Assembly: GCA_018830005.1 (NCBI GenBank)
Contig: JAHJTE010000002.1
Location: 331,809 to 395,808 of the forward strand
From: Candidatus Omnitrophota bacterium
GTDB taxonomy: Bacteria > Omnitrophota > Gorgyraeia > JAHJTE01
Reading direction: 5' to 3'
Length of the DNA stretch: 64,000 nt
Position 1 is the stretch's first letter. The number at the start of each line of letters is the position of its first letter. This document shows, piece by piece, positions 5,208-25,569 of this stretch. The position numbers and the translations under genes are program-made. The notes under the pieces were generated by a model. The model was not told the origin of the DNA. It made no database searches and saw only the letters and a list, made by a program, of their open reading frames with translations.

Positions 5208-7556
5208 TTAAATCTTATTAAAAACCAGATTGAAAAGGAACTTTCTAAATCTAAATCTATTTGCATAGTCATCAATCCTGCTTGATAATGAAAGACTATT
5301 GCGCTGACTCAAAAATGAACGCATGTTTTTATCAGTCTTTATTAGATTAACTTTGCTAAGCCGGCAGACTAAGCTATCATAGTCTTGCTCGAGGAATCTA
5401 ATCTTAGAAAACCAATAGCGACTTGCCTGGAAATCCTTGGACTCATATTCTAAATATGATAGAAAAAAAAGACATTGGATATATTCATCTATCTCTTCAT
5501 CTAATATCTGCCAAATATAGCTAACCCTTTCCAACACTGTCTTTTCATGGATTAGGCCATATTCTGGCTTACTATATTGCAGTTTATAGAAAGATGTTAC
5601 TTTATTAACCCAACTATGCATATCCCCCATGGTAATCCATCTTAAGTCTTCTATCTTTAAGTCAGATAACAAATAATTGAACAAAAACGGCCTTTTCTCT
5701 ACCGCTTGCCTAAACAAATTATTGGCCTGTCTATAACGTTTAAGTTTTAATTGCTCAATCCCAGAGTTGAAAAGTTGCGAAAAAGGACTGCTGTTTTTAC
5801 CCTCTGAATTATTTATTCTATATCCTTCTAAAGAATAATTTAAAGAAACCTCATTAACATTCGGAACTTGATTGAATTTAATTCTTACTGGAACCTTATC
5901 AAAGACCTGGGCAAAAACATACCTTGCATTATCATTATATTTGTCAGTAGCAGAGAATCCTTTATAATGGGCAAATTCTACGGGTTTAATTTTATTCACA
6001 TAAATATCTTCAACACCAAGTTTATCTAGGCCGTAAGTATCTTCTAAATTGCTTCTGATCACGTTTGCGGCTCGTATAAAATCATAAGTCATGAAACTAT
6101 TCACCAGCTTACCCCTGAATAAAGCTAATTTTATTGCCATTAGATTAGGTAAACAAAGGAGAACGAGCAAAAAAACTAAGATTGTCTCCTTTGTCATTAT
6201 TTTTAATCTTGTCGAATCCAATAAATGCATAATAAAATAGAATAGAACAGAACAAAACGCAATACAAAATATTGGAGACAAAAAGATAAAATATCGAGAA
6301 GGAATAGGATTACGTAAATATAGATACCCTAAAGCAAAAAGATACCAAACCCCTAATGTTATAAGCGACTTGTTTTCGAGAACAAACTTTTTAATAAAGA
6401 TAATTATTATCAAAATCCCCAGTATAAGACTATAGGAGTCAAGCTGAAACGGTATAAAATGATAAGTCCGCACAGAGTCGATTAAGAAAACATTCGTCAA
6501 AGGATGTATAAATGAAGCCAAAATACCTAAAAATGGCACTAAAAAATTATATGGTATTAGGAGTCTCTTCGCACCGCCCATTGCAATCAATAACAAAGCT
6601 AAAACAAACAATGCTATTATTGATAGCCACTTTAATTTTTTTATAAAATGATTGAATTGGGGTAATCGTAATATTACCCTTAACGTAAATAAACAAAATG
6701 CTCCCGAAAAAAACATTATTAGATACTTTGTAAATATAGGGATGTTAACATTGTGGAAAAACATAAATAGGCGTGTCTCGCCAAATGCAAATGTAACTAA
6801 AGGATATATTAGATAAGTAGCAAATAGGGGTAACCAGATATCATACTTTCTAATTCTCTCATCATGATTTTTTGAGCAGAATAATATATGAGTCATTATC
6901 ATTGCAGGCAGAATAAAAATACTTGCCCGGCTAAAAGAAGCAACTAGATTAAATATCAAGGTTAAAATATAATAGCTTCTGTATTTTTTATTGCTGCTAA
7001 TGAGTTCGTCTGTTCTCAGATAAAAATTTAAAACAAATAAAATAAAAAAGACTACTATCAAGTGCTGAAAGGCCATTGGCCACATGTAGGCATGAAAATG
7101 GGCAAAAAGCGTCAGATATACTAAAGCGGAAAAAAAGCTGATTTTTGAATTTAGGCCCAATTTCTTACAGACAAAAAATAACAAAATAGAACAAGCAAAA
7201 TGAAATAAAACAGAGACAAATATGAAATACCTCGCTAATGGTCCAAACAAAGACATAATAATAAAGCTATAAATCTTTAATGATGCGCTTGCCTGTTCTA
7301 TTGGCAGCTGACTAAAGAAAAATCTAATTAATTGAAATACCGATAGATTCTTTGCCTCTTGTGCAACCGTGGGTAAAAGCCAGAGCAGATCTTCTTCAAA
7401 AAAAGTATTTATAGCATGTGAATAAATAACTTTTATAAATAACGCAGATAAAAATATGCCAACACAGATATAGATCAATCTTATCGTGTTTATTTGCGAA
7501 AGTTTACTTACTCTATTGTGAAAAAAATTCTTCATGTGATTATTGCCTGTCAACAA
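5208..7556 (-). CDS. Large polytopic membrane protein (GT-C / ArnT-PMT-like glycosyltransferase candidate) with a C-terminal soluble domain
   Basis: 782 aa. The first ~450 residues contain more than 10 hydrophobic helices, followed by a hydrophilic C-terminal ~300 aa domain. It lies within the glycan operon. The functional call is inferential. Confidence 0.4.
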
Positions 7557-9788: not shown

Positions 9789-10499
9789 TCATTTTAAAAT
9801 TTTCTGGGCTTGCCGATATCTTTCTGGTGTTCCAATGTCAATAAAATCTGCGTCTGTCTTATACCCGTAAAAATCACTTTTAGTAATTTTGGGGAAAAGT
9901 TGTCGCTCTAGAGAAAAATTCTTATCAGATGGAATCATAGAAAATATCCTATTGTCAAAAAGATAAATCCCAGCACTTATAAAACAGCCTTCTCCTGTGT
10001 CCACTTTCTCATCAAATTTCAAAATCCTATCTGAATCCCCTATGCTAACAATGCCATAATCAGCTGCTTGTTCACTTTTAAGTAATACAGCTGAAAACAA
10101 TGCCTTTCTTTCGATATGAAACTTTATAAATTCCACAAGATCTAATTTACACAATGAATCCCCGTTTAAAACTAAAAAGGTAGGGCTTTTTATTAAGCTT
10201 TTAGCATTCTTTATTGCCCCTGCGGTACCCAATGGCTTTAACTCTTGGCTAAAACTTATCCTTAGATTCCTCAATTTATCCTTATAGTAGCTCTTAATTA
10301 AATCTGATTTATATCCTGTGCAAAGAATAAAGTGTTTAAATCCGAAGTTCGCAATATAATCAATCAGAATATCTAAAAAGGCGCGTCCATTAATTTCAGC
10401 CAGGACTTTTGGCCGATCATTCACAGCCGACTTAAGACGTTCGCCTTTTCCTCCACAAAGCAAAACTACATCTATAGATTCTGTCTCGATGCTATTCAT
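9789..10499 (-). CDS. hddC: Sugar-1-phosphate nucleotidyltransferase, D-glycero-alpha-D-manno-heptose-1-P guanylyltransferase-like
   Basis: LCGGKGERL nucleotidyltransferase motif; 236 aa; 4-bp ATGA overlap with the upstream GHMP kinase. The pairing is diagnostic of HddA/HddC. Confidence 0.6.
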   Translation of the reverse strand: MNSIETESIDVVLLCGGKGERLKSAVNDRPKVLAEINGRAFLDILIDYIANFGFKHFILCTGYKSDLIKSYYKDKLRNLRISFSQELKPLGTAGAIKNAKSLIKSPTFLVLNGDSLCKLDLVEFIKFHIERKALFSAVLLKSEQAADYGIVSIGDSDRILKFDEKVDTGEGCFISAGIYLFDNRIFSMIPSDKNFSLERQLFPKITKSDFYGYKTDADFIDIGTPERYRQAQKILK

Positions 10500-11500
10500 G
10501 ATCTCAATAAAGAATCACCTGGACTATAAAATATAATTTGACTTCCTAAACTTTCAAAACTAAAAGGCACATAAAGTAATTTGCTTAGTTTTTCTCTAAT
10601 GCGTGGCTGTACATTCGGCTCTGCAAAGATTAATATAAAACCACCTCCGCCAGCGCCCAATAACTTCCCCCCTAACGCACCTGCGTTAATGGCGCTATCG
10701 TATATCTCATCGATTTTAGGAGTGGTTATTTTTTTGGATAAATTGCGTTTAATTTTCCAGCTTTCGTGCAAAAGTTTCCCAAAATCCGTCAATCTGCTTT
10801 TACTATTCAAAATTTTTAATGCCTCCTTAACCAATTCCGACAGGGTTGTCAGTTCTGTTTTCTTATTAGGCGTTTCTTTAATTTGTTCTGCAGCAATCTT
10901 AGAGGCGGTGCGTGAAAATCCTGTAAAGAAAAGCATCAAATGTTCATGTAGACAATTAAGTCTGCTTACATCAACTGTTAGGGGGCTAACCTTAATATGC
11001 TCTTTGCCTCCGAATTCTATCAAATTAAATCCACCAAATGCAGCTTGCGCTTGATCTTGGCTTCCTACATTTTCGTTAATAAGTTCTTGCTCAACATGTA
11101 TAGCATCAAGTGCTAACTGCCTCTTCGTAGGCATAATACCTTTAAGGGCATAAAGGGCATGAAGCAATCCTACCGTAAAAGTCGAGCTCGATCCCATTCC
11201 CGTACGAGCAGGCAAGTCTCCATCATGATGGATTTCGATTCCATTTTTGACTTTCATAAATCTTAAACATTCACGAACAGAAGGATGGTGGATCTCAGAA
11301 ATTTCATTTATAAGCTCTACCTCAGAATAACTAATACGGGATTTATGTTCAAAAAAAGGCGGTAAATAACGACAATTAATATAGCAATATTTATTTATAG
11401 TAGTAGCTAAAACAGCTCCGCCATTTTCCTTATACCAAACAGGATAGTCTGTGCCACCTCCGAAAAAAGAAATACGAAAAGGCGTTCTGCTTATAACCAT
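10496..11500 (-). CDS. hddA: GHMP kinase, D-glycero-alpha-D-manno-heptose-7-phosphate kinase-like
   Basis: MVISRTPFRISFFGGGTDYPVWY N-terminus, GMGSSST GHMP motif, and a GAGGGG C-terminal motif. Confidence 0.7.
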   Translation of the reverse strand: MVISRTPFRISFFGGGTDYPVWYKENGGAVLATTINKYCYINCRYLPPFFEHKSRISYSEVELINEISEIHHPSVRECLRFMKVKNGIEIHHDGDLPARTGMGSSSTFTVGLLHALYALKGIMPTKRQLALDAIHVEQELINENVGSQDQAQAAFGGFNLIEFGGKEHIKVSPLTVDVSRLNCLHEHLMLFFTGFSRTASKIAAEQIKETPNKKTELTTLSELVKEALKILNSKSRLTDFGKLLHESWKIKRNLSKKITTPKIDEIYDSAINAGALGGKLLGAGGGGFILIFAEPNVQPRIREKLSKLLYVPFSFESLGSQIIFYSPGDSLLRS

Positions 11501-11503
11501 AAT

Positions 11504-13228
11504 TTATATCTCCTTAAGTTTGTATGAATTGACCCAATATAACTTTTTTCCAAAACCCAAAATATCCGCGGGACCAAATATTTCATCTAAAGAATATTTC
11601 TTTTCAATAAAATCTTCTATGCGGGGGGATATTGATTGGAAATCACTTAAATAATTATTACTGATTTTTAAAATTATTTTCGGATTTTCATTTTCAATTT
11701 TAGAAATTATACTATGTTCAAATGAAGTTACTATGGGCCTGAGGTCCTCTCTTTTAATAGACATCTTTACCAAGAATTCAAGTTTCTTTAAAAGGTATTC
11801 TTCTCTTACAAAGATATTATTTTGCTTAGTTAAGAAGCTTAATTGTGGATAATAGCCCATAACAACTATTTTTTCATTATCCTGGAGATTCTTTGATAGA
11901 TAAGAAAATAATGACTCATATAATTCCTTTTCATAAGCAGTGACTAGGATTCCTTGGGCTCGGACTAAATTTAACGGTTCTCGATATCTTTTTGAATTAG
12001 AGTAAGGATAAATAAAAAAGTTTAAAAAACTGATATAAAATAAAAATATCGCAATACAAATTCTTGTAATTACCGGCCTAGTAGAGTAAAAAGTCTTCAA
12101 AAAATAAAGCAAATAAACGGTAAGAATAAAAGTAAGTTGAATATTGTATGCCTTGGTCATATTATGACCCACTAGAAAACTCTCGAAAGAAATAAACACC
12201 GAAGGAATAATGATGATCAATAAAGAATTTTTGTCTCTAAGCAATTTTTCCTTAATCTCAAAGTTAACTTTATTAAATCTTGCCCTGATATAAATAAAGA
12301 TAATTGAAATAGGCACTATAAAATACAGGCAATTGATAAAGGCCTCAAATGAAGTAACCAATAATTGCTTAAACTCACCAAATGAAGATATATTTATAAG
12401 GCTGCTAATTGGAAATATGCCATTAATTTTTTTTAAAATTTCTGAAAAGGTAATTATATCAATCTTGGATGAGAGGCTAACGGATACGGCAGAATTAGGT
12501 TGAAAAAACAAAGGGTAAGCCACAGGTAAATCCTTTAGCGCAGTCTGAGAATAAAAATACAATAAATATATCAACGGTAAAATGAATACACCTATTAGAA
12601 ATATCAAATAATTATTAATTTTATTTCTAAATTCCCTTAAACCATCAAACAAAAACAAAAATAAAGATACAGCAACTAAAAAACTAACTCCTGCTAATAA
12701 CGGCTTAGTTAATAAGCAAATGGAACAAAAGATACCAGCCCAAAAAATATTATATATTTTTTTATTCGATTCCAAGTATCTACAGATCATCAATAAACAG
12801 GCAATCTCAGCCAAAACAATGAAGATATGATTAAATGTATAATATGGAACATTAAAAAATATAATTGATAGAAAAGCAGCTATGCCGGCCCAAAGACTTG
12901 GCATGATCCTTTTGGACAAAAAGAAAACAAGAGGTATGACTAATGAGGCAAAAATGATATAGCTAATTCTCAAAACAATTAAATTGACACCGAATATCTT
13001 CATGATGAACGGATAGACGAAGAAAGAAAATGGACCATATAACCATTCAAAATCACGATAGGCTAAATTGCCTTGCATAGCTAAAAGATAAGCGTTTGCA
13101 TCACGACTTTCCTCAAAATTCATACCTAAACGAAAACTTAAAACATGATGAATATAATAAATCAAGGCTACGGCTAAGATAATTAGCAAGCTTTTATACT
13201 GTTTCCAAAACTCATTCTTTTTAAACAT
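11504..13228 (-). CDS. Polytopic membrane protein (GT-C-like), paralog A of a tandem pair
   Basis: 574 aa, multi-TM, with a hydrophilic C-terminal domain. About 55% aa identity to the neighbouring 13286..14992 product across the full length. Confidence 0.5.
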   Translation of the reverse strand: MFKKNEFWKQYKSLLIILAVALIYYIHHVLSFRLGMNFEESRDANAYLLAMQGNLAYRDFEWLYGPFSFFVYPFIMKIFGVNLIVLRISYIIFASLVIPLVFFLSKRIMPSLWAGIAAFLSIIFFNVPYYTFNHIFIVLAEIACLLMICRYLESNKKIYNIFWAGIFCSICLLTKPLLAGVSFLVAVSLFLFLFDGLREFRNKINNYLIFLIGVFILPLIYLLYFYSQTALKDLPVAYPLFFQPNSAVSVSLSSKIDIITFSEILKKINGIFPISSLINISSFGEFKQLLVTSFEAFINCLYFIVPISIIFIYIRARFNKVNFEIKEKLLRDKNSLLIIIIPSVFISFESFLVGHNMTKAYNIQLTFILTVYLLYFLKTFYSTRPVITRICIAIFLFYISFLNFFIYPYSNSKRYREPLNLVRAQGILVTAYEKELYESLFSYLSKNLQDNEKIVVMGYYPQLSFLTKQNNIFVREEYLLKKLEFLVKMSIKREDLRPIVTSFEHSIISKIENENPKIILKISNNYLSDFQSISPRIEDFIEKKYSLDEIFGPADILGFGKKLYWVNSYKLKEI

Positions 13229-13285
13229 AAATATTAAAATGTTTTTCTATTTAGATGCAGTATGCTAATAACCGCGAATTCACTT

Positions 13286-14992
13286 TCAATTTAATTTATA
13301 TGCATACACCCTAGCTTTTTCGTTTTCATTTCCAAGAATCTGTGCTGGTTCAAATTTTCGCTCTAGAAGATAATTTTCTGCTAGATAGTCTTTAATCTTG
13401 GGGGATATCATCCTGAAGTTAGGCAGATAATCTGCATTTATCGTCAAAACTATCTTGGGTTTCTGCGTTCTCATCATAGACATTATTTTATTCTCTAGCA
13501 AATTGCCGGAGAGAATAGCCCGGCCTGTCTTCCGTGCTCTCCAAAAGAGAACTTCGAGATTTGGAAAAATATAATCGTCTTTCGCAAAAATATTTTCTTG
13601 TTCGGTTAAGAAACTTAATTGAGGATAATAACCTATAACAGCAATCTTATCTTTGGCTTTAAGATTATCGGATAAGTATAACGACAAAGACTCATACATT
13701 CTTTTTTCTTGAGGTGTTACCAAAATTCCCCTGCTGCGTTCAAGATTCAATATTTTAGTGTTCTTTTTTAATCTAGAGTACGGATAACGGAAGAAAGACA
13801 CGAAACTTAAGGAAAATAAAACAATAAGTATTGCAGCAAACAAACGCTTACGCTGATGAATTCTTTTAAATAAATAGAGTAAATATACAGTCACTATAAA
13901 TGGGGTTTGAATAGTAAATGATCTATTGTAAATATGAGACATTACTAAGCTCTCTAGAGAAATAAATATTGAAAAAAGACCGAATAGTAGGAAGAATCTT
14001 TTGTTTTTTTTAATTTCTTCTCTAATTTCTGTTCTTTGATTACTAAATTTAGATCGATTATAAACAAGCAAAAGTAAAGCGCAGGTTAGAAACGGCAAAA
14101 TAACAATAAAATTATCAAATGAGGCAATTAGGACTTTTTTTAACTCTGTGAATGAAGTTAAATTTATAATCGTTTTGATTGGCAATAAGGTTGTTATTCT
14201 TTCAATGAGCCTTGGAATAATGCTCATTATCCTTGGAGCCTGATCAGCAAACAGCGATGAATCTTTAGCAAAATATGGATGAGCTACAGCAATACCTTTA
14301 AGTCTAGTTTGAAAATAGAAATACAAAGAATATATTAAAGGCAAAAAAACTGCGGCAATACTAAACATTAAAATATCTTTAAATCTTTTTCCCAGGCTAC
14401 CTAAATCCTTGTACAATAAAATAAATAAAGATATTGCAGCAAAAATAGTTATTCCAGAAACTAAAGGCTTAGTTAATAAGCAAATGGAACAGGAGATACC
14501 GGCTAAAATTAAATACAAGATTTTTCGATTTGTTTCCATATATAAACATATCATCAAAAGACAGATCATTGCCCCCAATGTAAGAAAAATATGATTATAC
14601 GTATAATACGGGACATCAAAGAATACAATTGATAAGAATGCGGCGATACCTGCCCAAAGAGGCGGCATTATTCTTCTGGCTAAAAAGTATGCAAGAGGAA
14701 TAATCAAAGAAGTAAATACAATATAGCTAACCCTTAAAACAATAAGATTAAAACCAAATATCTTCATAAGCACAGGGTAAACAAAAAACGCGAAAGGTCC
14801 ATATACCCATTGGAAATCACGGTAGGCTAAATTGCCCTGTATAGCCAAAAGATAAGCGTTTGCGTCACGGCCCTCCTCAAAATGCAATCCCAAACGAAAA
14901 CTAAAATATTGTTTCAAGTAATAGCTAGCAACCACTACTAAAATTATTAAGAAGCTTTTATTTTGTTGCCAAAACTTATATCTATAATTCAT
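13286..14992 (-). CDS. Polytopic membrane protein (GT-C-like), paralog B of a tandem pair
   Basis: 568 aa. It shares the motif block FRLG..FEE.RDANAYLLA.QGNLAYRDF.W.YGPF.FFVYP with paralog A. Confidence 0.5.
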   Translation of the reverse strand: MNYRYKFWQQNKSFLIILVVVASYYLKQYFSFRLGLHFEEGRDANAYLLAIQGNLAYRDFQWVYGPFAFFVYPVLMKIFGFNLIVLRVSYIVFTSLIIPLAYFLARRIMPPLWAGIAAFLSIVFFDVPYYTYNHIFLTLGAMICLLMICLYMETNRKILYLILAGISCSICLLTKPLVSGITIFAAISLFILLYKDLGSLGKRFKDILMFSIAAVFLPLIYSLYFYFQTRLKGIAVAHPYFAKDSSLFADQAPRIMSIIPRLIERITTLLPIKTIINLTSFTELKKVLIASFDNFIVILPFLTCALLLLVYNRSKFSNQRTEIREEIKKNKRFFLLFGLFSIFISLESLVMSHIYNRSFTIQTPFIVTVYLLYLFKRIHQRKRLFAAILIVLFSLSFVSFFRYPYSRLKKNTKILNLERSRGILVTPQEKRMYESLSLYLSDNLKAKDKIAVIGYYPQLSFLTEQENIFAKDDYIFPNLEVLFWRARKTGRAILSGNLLENKIMSMMRTQKPKIVLTINADYLPNFRMISPKIKDYLAENYLLERKFEPAQILGNENEKARVYAYKLN

Positions 14993-14997
14993 TTATC

Positions 14998-15930
14998 TTA
15001 AACATTGGAGAATTGGTTTAGTCTGATAACCTGATAACCTTTGATTAATTCCCTAATACCATCCCGAAGTGAAAAAATAGGCTTGAATCCTGTCTTTTCA
15101 ATTTTTGAGTTACTTACGATGTAGTCTCTTTTGTCCGGATCCTCCCCAATCTTAGCTTCGACAAAATAAAACTCAGGGATCTCCTTTTTGATCTGTTCAC
15201 ATAATTCCCATTTGCTTAAATTTGCATCGCTAATGCCAACATTATAAGGTTCGTCTTTCATCAATTCGAAATTATCTAAGGAATGAATAAATGCCTTTGC
15301 CACATCTCGCACATGAATATAATTTCTCTTGAAGTGTGGCTCGAAAATTATAATAAAATAGTCAGCTACGGCGCGATAAACAAAATTATTCACTAGAAGG
15401 TCAAGCCGCATTCGTGGACTAACCCCAAATGCCGTTGCCAGACGTAAAGAAATTGAATTTTTAGCATCCAACAGCGCCTTCTCTGCTTCTACCTTCAATC
15501 TTCCATAAAGAGAAATAGGCCGCAAAGGGGTATCCTCGGTGCAGAAGTTATCTTTCTGGCCTACTCCATAACCGCTATTCGTAGTGGGATAAATTACTCT
15601 TTGATTTTTACTGCGTAAATCTAATATCAAATTTAGGCCATCAACAATGACTGCTTTAGCCTCTGTTGGATTTTTCTGACAAACAGGCGCGCCCGTCAAA
15701 CAAGCCAAAGGGAAAATTACATCGACGTTCTGGAGCAGTTTCGAAATCAATTTTTTATCTCGACAATCTCCTCTAGTAATAGTCAATTTTTTATCATAGC
15801 AACAATCTAAAAGAGAGGTTTGATTATAAATAAAATTATCCAGAGCGATAACTTCGCAACCCTTCTTTAATAATTCAGAGACTAATACTGAACCAATATA
15901 ACCTGCTGCTCCAGTAACTAAAATCTTCAT
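14998..15930 (-). CDS. NAD-dependent epimerase/dehydratase (extended SDR)
   Basis: VTGAAGYIGS Rossmann motif and YGRLK catalytic motif. Confidence 0.7.
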   Translation of the reverse strand: MKILVTGAAGYIGSVLVSELLKKGCEVIALDNFIYNQTSLLDCCYDKKLTITRGDCRDKKLISKLLQNVDVIFPLACLTGAPVCQKNPTEAKAVIVDGLNLILDLRSKNQRVIYPTTNSGYGVGQKDNFCTEDTPLRPISLYGRLKVEAEKALLDAKNSISLRLATAFGVSPRMRLDLLVNNFVYRAVADYFIIIFEPHFKRNYIHVRDVAKAFIHSLDNFELMKDEPYNVGISDANLSKWELCEQIKKEIPEFYFVEAKIGEDPDKRDYIVSNSKIEKTGFKPIFSLRDGIRELIKGYQVIRLNQFSNV

Positions 15931-24858: not shown

Positions 24859-25569
24859 TTAATGCCAAATGAATACTTCTCTTAAAACTTGAAAAAGATA
24901 AGCTGCTCCCCATTTAAAAACCTGTAATTTTGCTTCTCCGCCGATTCTTTTTGGTTCATCACCGGGGATCTCAGCAACTTTAAGTTTCCTTTTTGCTGCC
25001 CGAACTGACAATATCGGCTCCCAGCCGATTTTAGTCCTAAATAATTTCTCGGGTGTAGAATAAGTAATATCTTTATCTAAATCCAACTCTCTGACTAAAC
25101 TCTTTTTATATATTCGAAAGATATTCATAACATCTGTGTATTTACCGCCGTGTAATAAGTTCATGAGAGTAGTGAACATCCAATTGCCAAAGGCCGTAAC
25201 TGGAGTATCATCATAACTTTTAGCTCCTTTGGCGTAACGAGACGCAATAACCATGTCATAGCCTTCTTTCATCTTCTCGATTAATTTAGGAATAAGTTCA
25301 GGGATACAATTCCCATCCGGACTAAAGGTAATAAGTACCTCACTATTGACAGCTTCAAGGGCATCTATAAATGCATTACGCACGCCTGAACCTAGGTGCT
25401 TTTCAAATATTAAAGTCCAGCCATTCTCTTTAATGTAATCAATTGTCCCATCTGTAGAATAGCCATCAACAAAAACAATCTCATCGACCCACTCTCTTTT
25501 TATTCTGGGCATAATTTGTTTTAGACCATCAATTTCGTTAAGCGTAGGAATAAGTAAAGCTACTTTCAT
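24859..25569 (-). CDS. GT2 glycosyltransferase, polyprenyl-phosphate sugar synthase (DPM1/ArnC-like)
   Basis: LIPTLNE…VDGYSTDGT and DxD-type motifs; 236 aa soluble GT2. Confidence 0.7.
   Translation of the reverse strand: MKVALLIPTLNEIDGLKQIMPRIKREWVDEIVFVDGYSTDGTIDYIKENGWTLIFEKHLGSGVRNAFIDALEAVNSEVLITFSPDGNCIPELIPKLIEKMKEGYDMVIASRYAKGAKSYDDTPVTAFGNWMFTTLMNLLHGGKYTDVMNIFRIYKKSLVRELDLDKDITYSTPEKLFRTKIGWEPILSVRAAKRKLKVAEIPGDEPKRIGGEAKLQVFKWGAAYLFQVLREVFIWH

Follow-up and report, generated by a model that had tools for sequence, protein, structure and literature searches.

Do the two adjacent membrane-protein genes at 11504-14992 exchange DNA with each other, or do they resemble each other only where their whole family is conserved? 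The window, a stretch of 64,000 nucleotides (nt) from a Candidatus Omnitrophota genome, carries at this place, on its minus strand, gene B (13286-14992, the upstream copy) and gene A (11504-13228, the downstream copy), with a spacer of 57 nt (13229-13285, same strand, read from the sequence) between them. They are open reading frames (ORFs) of 568 and 574 amino acids (aa), respectively, each for a PMT_2-type GT-C membrane glycosyltransferase, and are homologous over their full length, in agreement with the tandem pair of membrane proteins of about 570 aa described in an earlier note on this DNA. That note also took the pair to be a hotspot of recombination or variation. Our analysis favours another answer, to which we assign a probability of about 70%: A and B are two intact, anciently diverged paralogs in a small, mostly Omnitrophota family of PMT_2/ArnT-like proteins, and their mosaic likeness is the conservation profile of that family.

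The overall identity of the two proteins, which the earlier note had put at about 55%, is 49% from end to end (BLASTP), and that of the codon-aligned genes is 62%. Identity is distributed unevenly, with 72% over residues 1-135 and 40% over residues 200-574, and the same gradient is seen when A is compared with homologs from other genomes. The unevenness of the proposed mosaic is therefore real, but its near-identical blocks are not, since no such stretch was found anywhere: the best A-B window of 50 nt (from 13050) reaches 92% and the best window of 100 nt reaches 85%. The longest exact run shared by A and B is 26 nt (12702-12727 and 14466-14491), followed by runs of 17 and 14 nt; exact matches of 10-16 nt to A or B also occur in unrelated genes of the cluster, which leaves the 26-nt run as the only exceptional one.

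The two blocks singled out earlier could be located, although their register had been slightly off, the true A-to-B offset being 1764 nt. The smaller one (12700-12745 versus 14464-14509) is identical at 39 of 46 positions (85%) and holds the 26-nt run. The larger one (13020-13150, minus strand, pairing with 14784-14914) is identical at 104 of 131 positions (79%) and encodes the predicted first periplasmic loop with the acidic motif E39-E40-x-R42-D43. A 15-nt near-palindrome, GCTTAGTTAATAAGC, was also noticed at 12703-12717 and 14467-14481, with a variant, GCTTAGTTAAGAAGC, at 11824-11838; it was considered as a binding site and set aside, the codons of an L-T-K motif lying in all three places, and its threefold occurrence is probably coincidental.

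For the larger block, a conversion-tract test was made on 13019-13141 (codons 30-70), using homologs from other genomes whose genomic contexts were taken from the contigs that encode them (here numbered L001 onwards). Nucleotide identity in this block is 81% between A and B, 80% between A and L001, and 82% between A and L008 (codons 41-70), so that A and B are not closer to each other than to homologs from other genomes. The sole part in which the A-B pair ranks first is a core of 16 codons (165-180), with 85% identity against at most 75% for other pairs. Synonymous positions were compared as well. Among 272 conserved degenerate codons, 138 are the same codon in A and B, against 119 expected from codon usage, and the same-codon fraction is 0.49 in codons 1-135 and 0.47 in codons 200-574, compared with about 0.50 for unrelated pairs from different genomes. 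The number of synonymous substitutions per synonymous site (dS, Nei-Gojobori) is 2.58 in codons 2-135 and 2.18 in codons 201-574. Overall, the synonymous sites of A and B are near saturation. Since A is equally similar to L001 and L008 and since the A-B synonymous sites are saturated, the likeness of the larger block is conservation at the protein level, arising from purifying selection on a catalytic N-terminal core, and not gene conversion.

The family as a whole displays the same profile. In an alignment of 21 members from different metagenomes, columns with no or almost no variation cluster in residues 35-136 and 165-180, and A and B each keep all family-invariant residues, including E39, E40, R42, K175 and P176; D43 is also present in both. 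Because this N-terminal core is constrained in every family member, the similar DNA blocks can be regarded as a by-product of purifying selection. The core (residues ~30-135 and 165-177) comprises the loop with the acidic motif and the LLTKP segment; the remaining 400 residues, by contrast, evolve fast.

Neighbour-joining trees with bootstrap provided a further line of evidence. A grouping of A and B as sisters obtained bootstrap support of 1% with the whole protein, 10% with residues 1-135, 37% with residues 1-200, 14% with residues 136-230 and 0% with residues 200-574; as judged from these trees, neither A nor B has the other as its closest relative. The closest relatives of A reach only 52-55% identity. 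The closest relative of B, at 63% compared with 49% between B and A, is L008:1351-3105 (GCA_017973895.1). This gene has an in-frame TAA at 2518-2520, so that it is either a decaying copy or the subject of a sequencing error, and it lies outside any glycan cluster, with T2SSE, dCMP deaminase, dnaX and recR genes as neighbours.

Together, the dS above 2 in most of the gene, the absence of a sister relationship and a block shared with other genomes speak against the hotspot that had been proposed. Elements that could switch the genes in phase or antigenic variation were looked for and not found: simple-sequence repeats are absent, the only tandem repeats are trivial (scores of at most 36), and there are no strong inverted repeats of at least 16 nt, the best pair being 90% complementary over 20 nt and the longest ones (34-36 nt) only about 71%. 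No variant alleles of A or B turned up in the databases searched, and nothing relevant was found in the literature on Omnitrophota glycosyltransferases or on gene conversion among GT-C paralogs. The two genes also stand in tandem in an independent assembly (Logan, run SRR6514730), whose 8799 nt covering both of them match at 100% identity, so the arrangement does not stem from the error of a single assembler.

Both exact sequences are found in public databases under the name 'glycosyltransferase family 39 protein', encoded on a 403-kb contig of a Candidatus Omnitrophica metagenome-assembled genome (MAG); gene B, entry P0010 of our homolog set, carries that name at NCBI. The Pfam PMT_2 model (PF13231) matches A with 27.8 bits and B with 27.2 bits, marginal passes of the cut-off of 26.1, and B also matches Pfam PMT (24.8 bits, cut-off 22.7). 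No NCBIfam model matches A or B, and a search of the family profile against PDB sequences gave nothing at E≤1. The AlphaFold2 model of A, built from the 21-sequence alignment (predicted local distance difference test (pLDDT) 77.6, predicted template modelling score (pTM) 0.80), has about 20 helices through residue 406, followed by an alpha/beta soluble domain at residues 417-571. In a Foldseek search of this model against the PDB, all 21 matches at E≤0.001 were GT-C enzymes (AglB, STT3, PglB, DPY19, ArnT and AftA), with E values of 3.6e-6 to 8e-4, probability 1.00 and moderate template modelling scores of 0.35-0.52; transporters appeared at non-significant scores only. Thus, with PMT_2 above its cut-off and the model of A matching only GT-C enzymes at that threshold, the earlier view of the pair as GT-C-like proteins and not simple transporters holds. 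E39, E40 and R42 do not vary among the 21 members and D43 hardly varies, and the motif directly follows the helix at residues 12-34. In GT-C enzymes, the position directly after the first transmembrane helix is the site of the catalytic acidic loop.

The family is small. Among 1.84 billion proteins, its profile recovered 33 representatives at E≤1e-30, a number that rises to 199 at E≤1e-10, and the more distant matches cover the N-terminal positions 10-240 only. A scan of genome contigs with protein A alone matched 77 patterns, none of which was confirmed as a relative. Two of the contigs with homologs deserve mention. The L006 contig (homolog P0012) carries two shorter PMT_2 proteins of 437 aa (1218-2531) and 455 aa (12689-14056) in the same cluster, indicating that multiple GT-C genes per glycan locus recur in this group, though the A/B-type gene is single there. 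In L007 (7355-10386 and the whole locus), the homolog P0021 lies with a B12-binding radical S-adenosylmethionine (SAM) gene on a 45-kb contig that consists mostly of small ORFs lacking a Pfam match; against PHROGs, this contig gave weak matches to tail fiber and tape-measure proteins (E values of 1e-4 to 5e-4) and one strong match to a phage radical SAM family, so it may, by these matches, be a phage carrying glycan-modification genes.

A and B lie in a sugar-biosynthesis and surface-glycan cluster that extends from the window start to ~37.7 kb, where trpC and other housekeeping genes begin. Immediately upstream of B is an epimerase/dehydratase of the short-chain dehydrogenase/reductase family (14998-15930, minus strand, 310 aa, Pfam Epimerase), a conserved upstream neighbour of the GT-C gene whose counterparts at this place in L001, L003 and L004 share 71-76% identity with it. 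Downstream of A follow an HddA-like GHMP sugar kinase (10496-11500, minus strand) and an HddC-like nucleotidyltransferase (9789-10499, minus strand), both assigned by Pfam and with HddA and HddC as their best NCBIfam matches, each below its cut-off. These two genes occur in the same order in L001, L003 and L004, with identities of 75-78% and 54-57%, respectively. In L001/L002, in L003 (complete genome CP070837) and in L004, the order is epimerase, GT-C gene, GHMP kinase and nucleotidyltransferase, with a single GT-C gene. Compared with L001, L003 and L004, the epimerase, kinase and DegT aminotransferase are 71-81% identical and a family 2 glycosyltransferase (GT2) of the cluster 64-79%, versus 47-54% for A/B, 54-57% for the nucleotidyltransferase and 49-56% for a third membrane protein of 782 aa. 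The fastest-evolving parts of the conserved cassette thus include the GT-C genes.

The GT2 (24859-25569, minus strand, 236 aa, Pfam Glycos_transf_2) is a candidate polyprenyl-phosphate sugar synthase. Its best NCBIfam similarities are to AglJ and to dolichyl-phosphate hexose transferase, both below the equivalog cut-offs, and its orthologs in relatives (51-79% identity) are in the same clusters, 0-4 genes upstream of the GT-C gene. From these similarities and this conserved position, we infer that the GT2 supplies the donor and that A and B may use a polyprenyl-phosphate-linked sugar. The following mechanism can be envisaged. The GT2 would load a sugar onto polyprenyl phosphate at the cytoplasmic face of the membrane; the lipid-linked sugar would then be flipped, and A and B would each transfer the sugar onto the glycan made by the cluster at the periplasmic face. 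The shared core of A and B would handle the same lipid-linked donor, and their divergent loops and C-terminal domains would give them different acceptor sites.

Several observations weigh against the preferred reading. The sole stretch with an excess of synonymous identity between A and B is 12629-12823 (minus strand, A codons 136-200, pairing with 14393-14587 in B), whose core lies at 12698-12736 and includes the 26-nt run. Here the same codon is used at 24 of 32 conserved degenerate positions, against the background of about 0.50, and at 17 of 19 within codons 165-197; dS drops to 0.74 in codons 136-200 and to 0.26 in the 13-codon core 165-177. In a permutation scan with windows of 20 codons, A-B gave p=0.0005, the lowest among the 28 pairs of eight family genes. 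Pure protein-level constraint does not predict this excess. A and B also share residues found in few or no other members at otherwise conserved positions, namely A56 (P in 19 of the 19 others), Y151 (F in 17 of 19) and C171. Furthermore, the family tree is star-like and poorly resolved, so that the age and origin of the second copy, as read from it, are uncertain, and the donor, acceptor and membrane orientation of A and B are all properties that we infer.

The best-surviving alternative, which can coexist with our preferred reading, is a single short and ancient exchange of at most 200 nt (~12629-12823 and 14393-14587) between A and the lineage of B, since eroded. It would account for the contrast between the dS of this segment and the values above 2 elsewhere, as well as for the rank of the A-B scan. 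C171 occurs in A and B alone, with the same ATT TGC codons at 170-171, and the segment dS of A-L008 (0.95) is close to that of B-L008 (0.93), as expected if the segment in A dates from about the time of the B/L008 split. However, the segment is short (65 codons, 32 of them informative), residues 178-195 fall back to a protein identity of 6/18 and a background nucleotide identity of ~65%, which reduces the high-identity core to ~39 nt, and the scan p is only ~0.03 once corrected for the 28 pairs and two window sizes. The core, moreover, encodes the conserved motif GI(F/S)CSICLLTKPL, in which L173, K175 and P176 are family-invariant, and the codon likeness is partly common to L008, from another organism, and could reflect clade ancestry or codon constraint. 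As proof of exchange, A56, Y151 and C171 were rejected: A and B have 8 private shared residues in total, within the range of unrelated pairs (up to 15; the median of random pairs is 5). We therefore consider such an exchange possible but doubtful, and, with a dS of 0.74, any exchange would be very old.

A second alternative is that the family evolves by modular recombination between lineages, an N-terminal core being joined to a C-terminal body, and that the second copy was acquired horizontally. One argument for it comes from the triplet of A, B and L008, in which informative sites were counted in the order B=L008, A=L008 and A=B. At the protein level, the counts are 7/16/11 for residues 1-135 and 104/35/26 for residues 166-574; the best breakpoint lies at codon 103 (3/15/7 before, 116/41/29 after) for the protein and at codon 173 (46/70/65 before, 268/114/115 after) for nucleotides, each with a permutation p<0.002. 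The dS between B and L008 is 3.5 in codons 2-135 versus 1.0 in codons 201-574, and their same-codon fraction is 0.48 versus 0.64 (Fisher p=0.016). The restriction of distant members to profile positions ~10-240, the place of the GT-C gene among the most divergent of the cassette and the homolog on the possibly phage-like contig L007 point the same way. Nevertheless, the N-terminal protein counts do not depart significantly from a star; either the N-terminal core of B or of L008 has a different ancestry or the few variable sites of this conserved region have lost their signal. In addition, the nucleotidyltransferase and the 782-aa protein are nearly as divergent as A and B, the L008 gene with its in-frame stop may be decaying, and the phage nature of L007 is weakly supported. 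Modular recombination thus appears unlikely, if still a serious alternative.

A fuller form of this idea, which we hold to be somewhat more speculative again, would make the A/B family the specificity-determining, fast-turnover part of a conserved Omnitrophota cassette, diversifying by modular recombination of alleles, possibly carried by phages, with a second allele captured beside the resident one. A conserved N-terminal core that handles the donor would be joined to a variable body that recognises the acceptor, and this process would have left its marks in the A/B/L008 breakpoint and the short A-B tract. Under the preferred reading, of two old paralogs, the second copy is either an old duplication in place or an acquired foreign allele.

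It is also conceivable that A and B act as an obligate heterodimer and not as independent enzymes. Paired GT-C paralogs, such as EmbA-EmbB in mycobacteria and Pmt1-Pmt2 in yeast, form heterodimers, and A and B are adjacent and co-oriented with no terminator between them; between 11300 and 15300, promoter-like and terminator-like sites are not more frequent than in shuffled sequence. Yet three relatives manage with a single copy, implying that a homomeric or monomeric enzyme suffices in this family, and both copies keep all invariant residues of the catalytic core. This arrangement therefore seems improbable.

Active or recent gene conversion between A and B, with the locus as a variation hotspot, is the weakest explanation and highly implausible: the mosaic identity, the one exact run and the local excess of shared codons at 165-197 speak for it, but several results count against it. 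The most similar tracts reach no more than 92% (50 nt) and 85% (100 nt); dS exceeds 2 across ~90% of the gene and is 0.74 even in the best segment; genes of other genomes resemble A just as closely in the larger block; A and B do not pair as sisters; in a collection of ~15 billion proteins, the 90%-identity cluster of A contains one distinct sequence, as does that of B; and 26 nt of identity lies at the lower limit for RecA-dependent exchange.

Around A and B, the genes of the cluster are arranged, along the direction of transcription, as the GT2, a class I aminotransferase, an HMGL-like enzyme, a split thiamine pyrophosphate (TPP) enzyme, a B12-binding radical SAM protein and an acetolactate-synthase-like TPP enzyme; then a second B12-binding radical SAM protein, the 310-aa epimerase, B, A, the HddA-like GHMP kinase and the HddC-like nucleotidyltransferase; and finally a DegT aminotransferase, an epimerase, the 782-aa membrane protein, a PseB/CapD-like dehydratase and another DegT aminotransferase. 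The segment 15948-33008 (minus strand) comprises two B12-binding radical SAM proteins, two radical SAM/SPASM proteins, the acetolactate-synthase-like TPP enzyme, two split transketolase/E1-like pairs, the HMGL-like (homocitrate/isopropylmalate synthase-like) enzyme and the class I aminotransferase, and similar enzyme sets recur beside the GT-C gene in relatives. By its predicted enzymes, this unusual set points to the synthesis of a sugar or side group with heavy modification, possibly by C-branching or methylation.

The 782-aa membrane protein (5208-7556, minus strand) had been described as a third, more divergent large membrane protein downstream. It does share the GT-C fold, but a paralogy with A and B is not borne out, since no sequence relationship could be detected, the comparison of its profile with that of the A/B family giving an hhalign probability of 0.9%. 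It has no Pfam and no NCBIfam match, and each of its 35 homologs that has a source-given name is called 'hypothetical protein' and comes from an Omnitrophica/Omnitrophota MAG. Its AlphaFold2 model (pLDDT 86.2, pTM 0.88), with a helical C-terminal domain resembling tetratricopeptide repeats, matched STT3, AglB and PglB oligosaccharyltransferases in all of the top 17 Foldseek hits in the PDB. The gene is syntenic in L003 and L004. On the strength of this model, the protein appears to represent a separate, unannotated GT-C family.

Across the whole window (1-64000), every sizeable ORF with a family match is on the minus strand, and the cumulative GC skew drops steadily, consistent with one long co-oriented stretch of a replichore. 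Low GC content combined with a positive AT skew, seen at 12-14 kb and at 6-8 kb, was considered as a mark of foreign DNA and rejected; these are the places of the three membrane-protein genes, and a composition of this kind is in keeping with hydrophobic codons, so that it is not evidence of transfer.

These results remove a false lead, in that the A/B locus should not be listed as a recombination hotspot, and document a small, poorly annotated GT-C subfamily together with its cassette of GT2, epimerase, GT-C gene, HddA-like kinase and HddC-like transferase, which is shared by L001/L002, L003 and L004. A second GT-C-fold family lacking annotation, that of the 782-aa protein, travels with the cassette. 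Both could be of use in annotating the surface-glycan loci of this uncultured phylum, about the biology of whose cell surface next to nothing is known.

Comparison with known systems places the pair further. In bacterial paralogs that undergo conversion, such as tufA and tufB, synonymous sites are typically near-identical over hundreds of bases and the copies group together in trees. A and B likewise coexist in one genome as paralogs and have a single short stretch of raised synonymous identity; unlike tufA/tufB, they have a dS above 2 over most of the gene, a longest exact run of 26 nt and no sister relationship. The embC-embA-embB genes of mycobacteria are tandem GT-C paralogs of about 1100 aa that have diverged in acceptor specificity, EmbA and EmbB forming a heterodimer. 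Adjacency, co-orientation and moderate identity are features that A and B have in common with them, whereas the Emb periplasmic domains differ and relatives of the A/B genome have one copy only.

Different again are the gtrABC modules for O-antigen glucosylation in Shigella, Salmonella and phages, in which the lipid-linked sugar comes from a conserved GT2 and the place where it is attached is determined by a GT-C-type transferase. The present cluster resembles them in its conserved GT2 (64-79%) beside a more variable GT-C gene (47-54%) and in the homolog on a possibly phage-like contig; it differs in that no GtrA-like flippase was identified here and in that the genes belong to a large chromosomal sugar cluster, not to a three-gene mobile cassette. 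The likeness is one of module logic. By analogy, the proposed order of GT2 and then GT-C would also follow the logic of ArnC and ArnT. The closest known kind is the ArnT or PMT_2-type GT-C enzyme (CAZy GT83/GT39), with which A and B share a polytopic protein of ~570 aa, a C-terminal soluble domain, the PMT_2 match, the acidic residues after the first transmembrane helix and a GT2 in the cluster, the fold of A matching ArnT itself (5ezm, 5f15); they differ in that the similarity is marginal (27-28 bits versus 26.1) and the subfamily small. Modular recombination of alleles remains a hint, and the A/B locus holds new members of a known GT-C kind.

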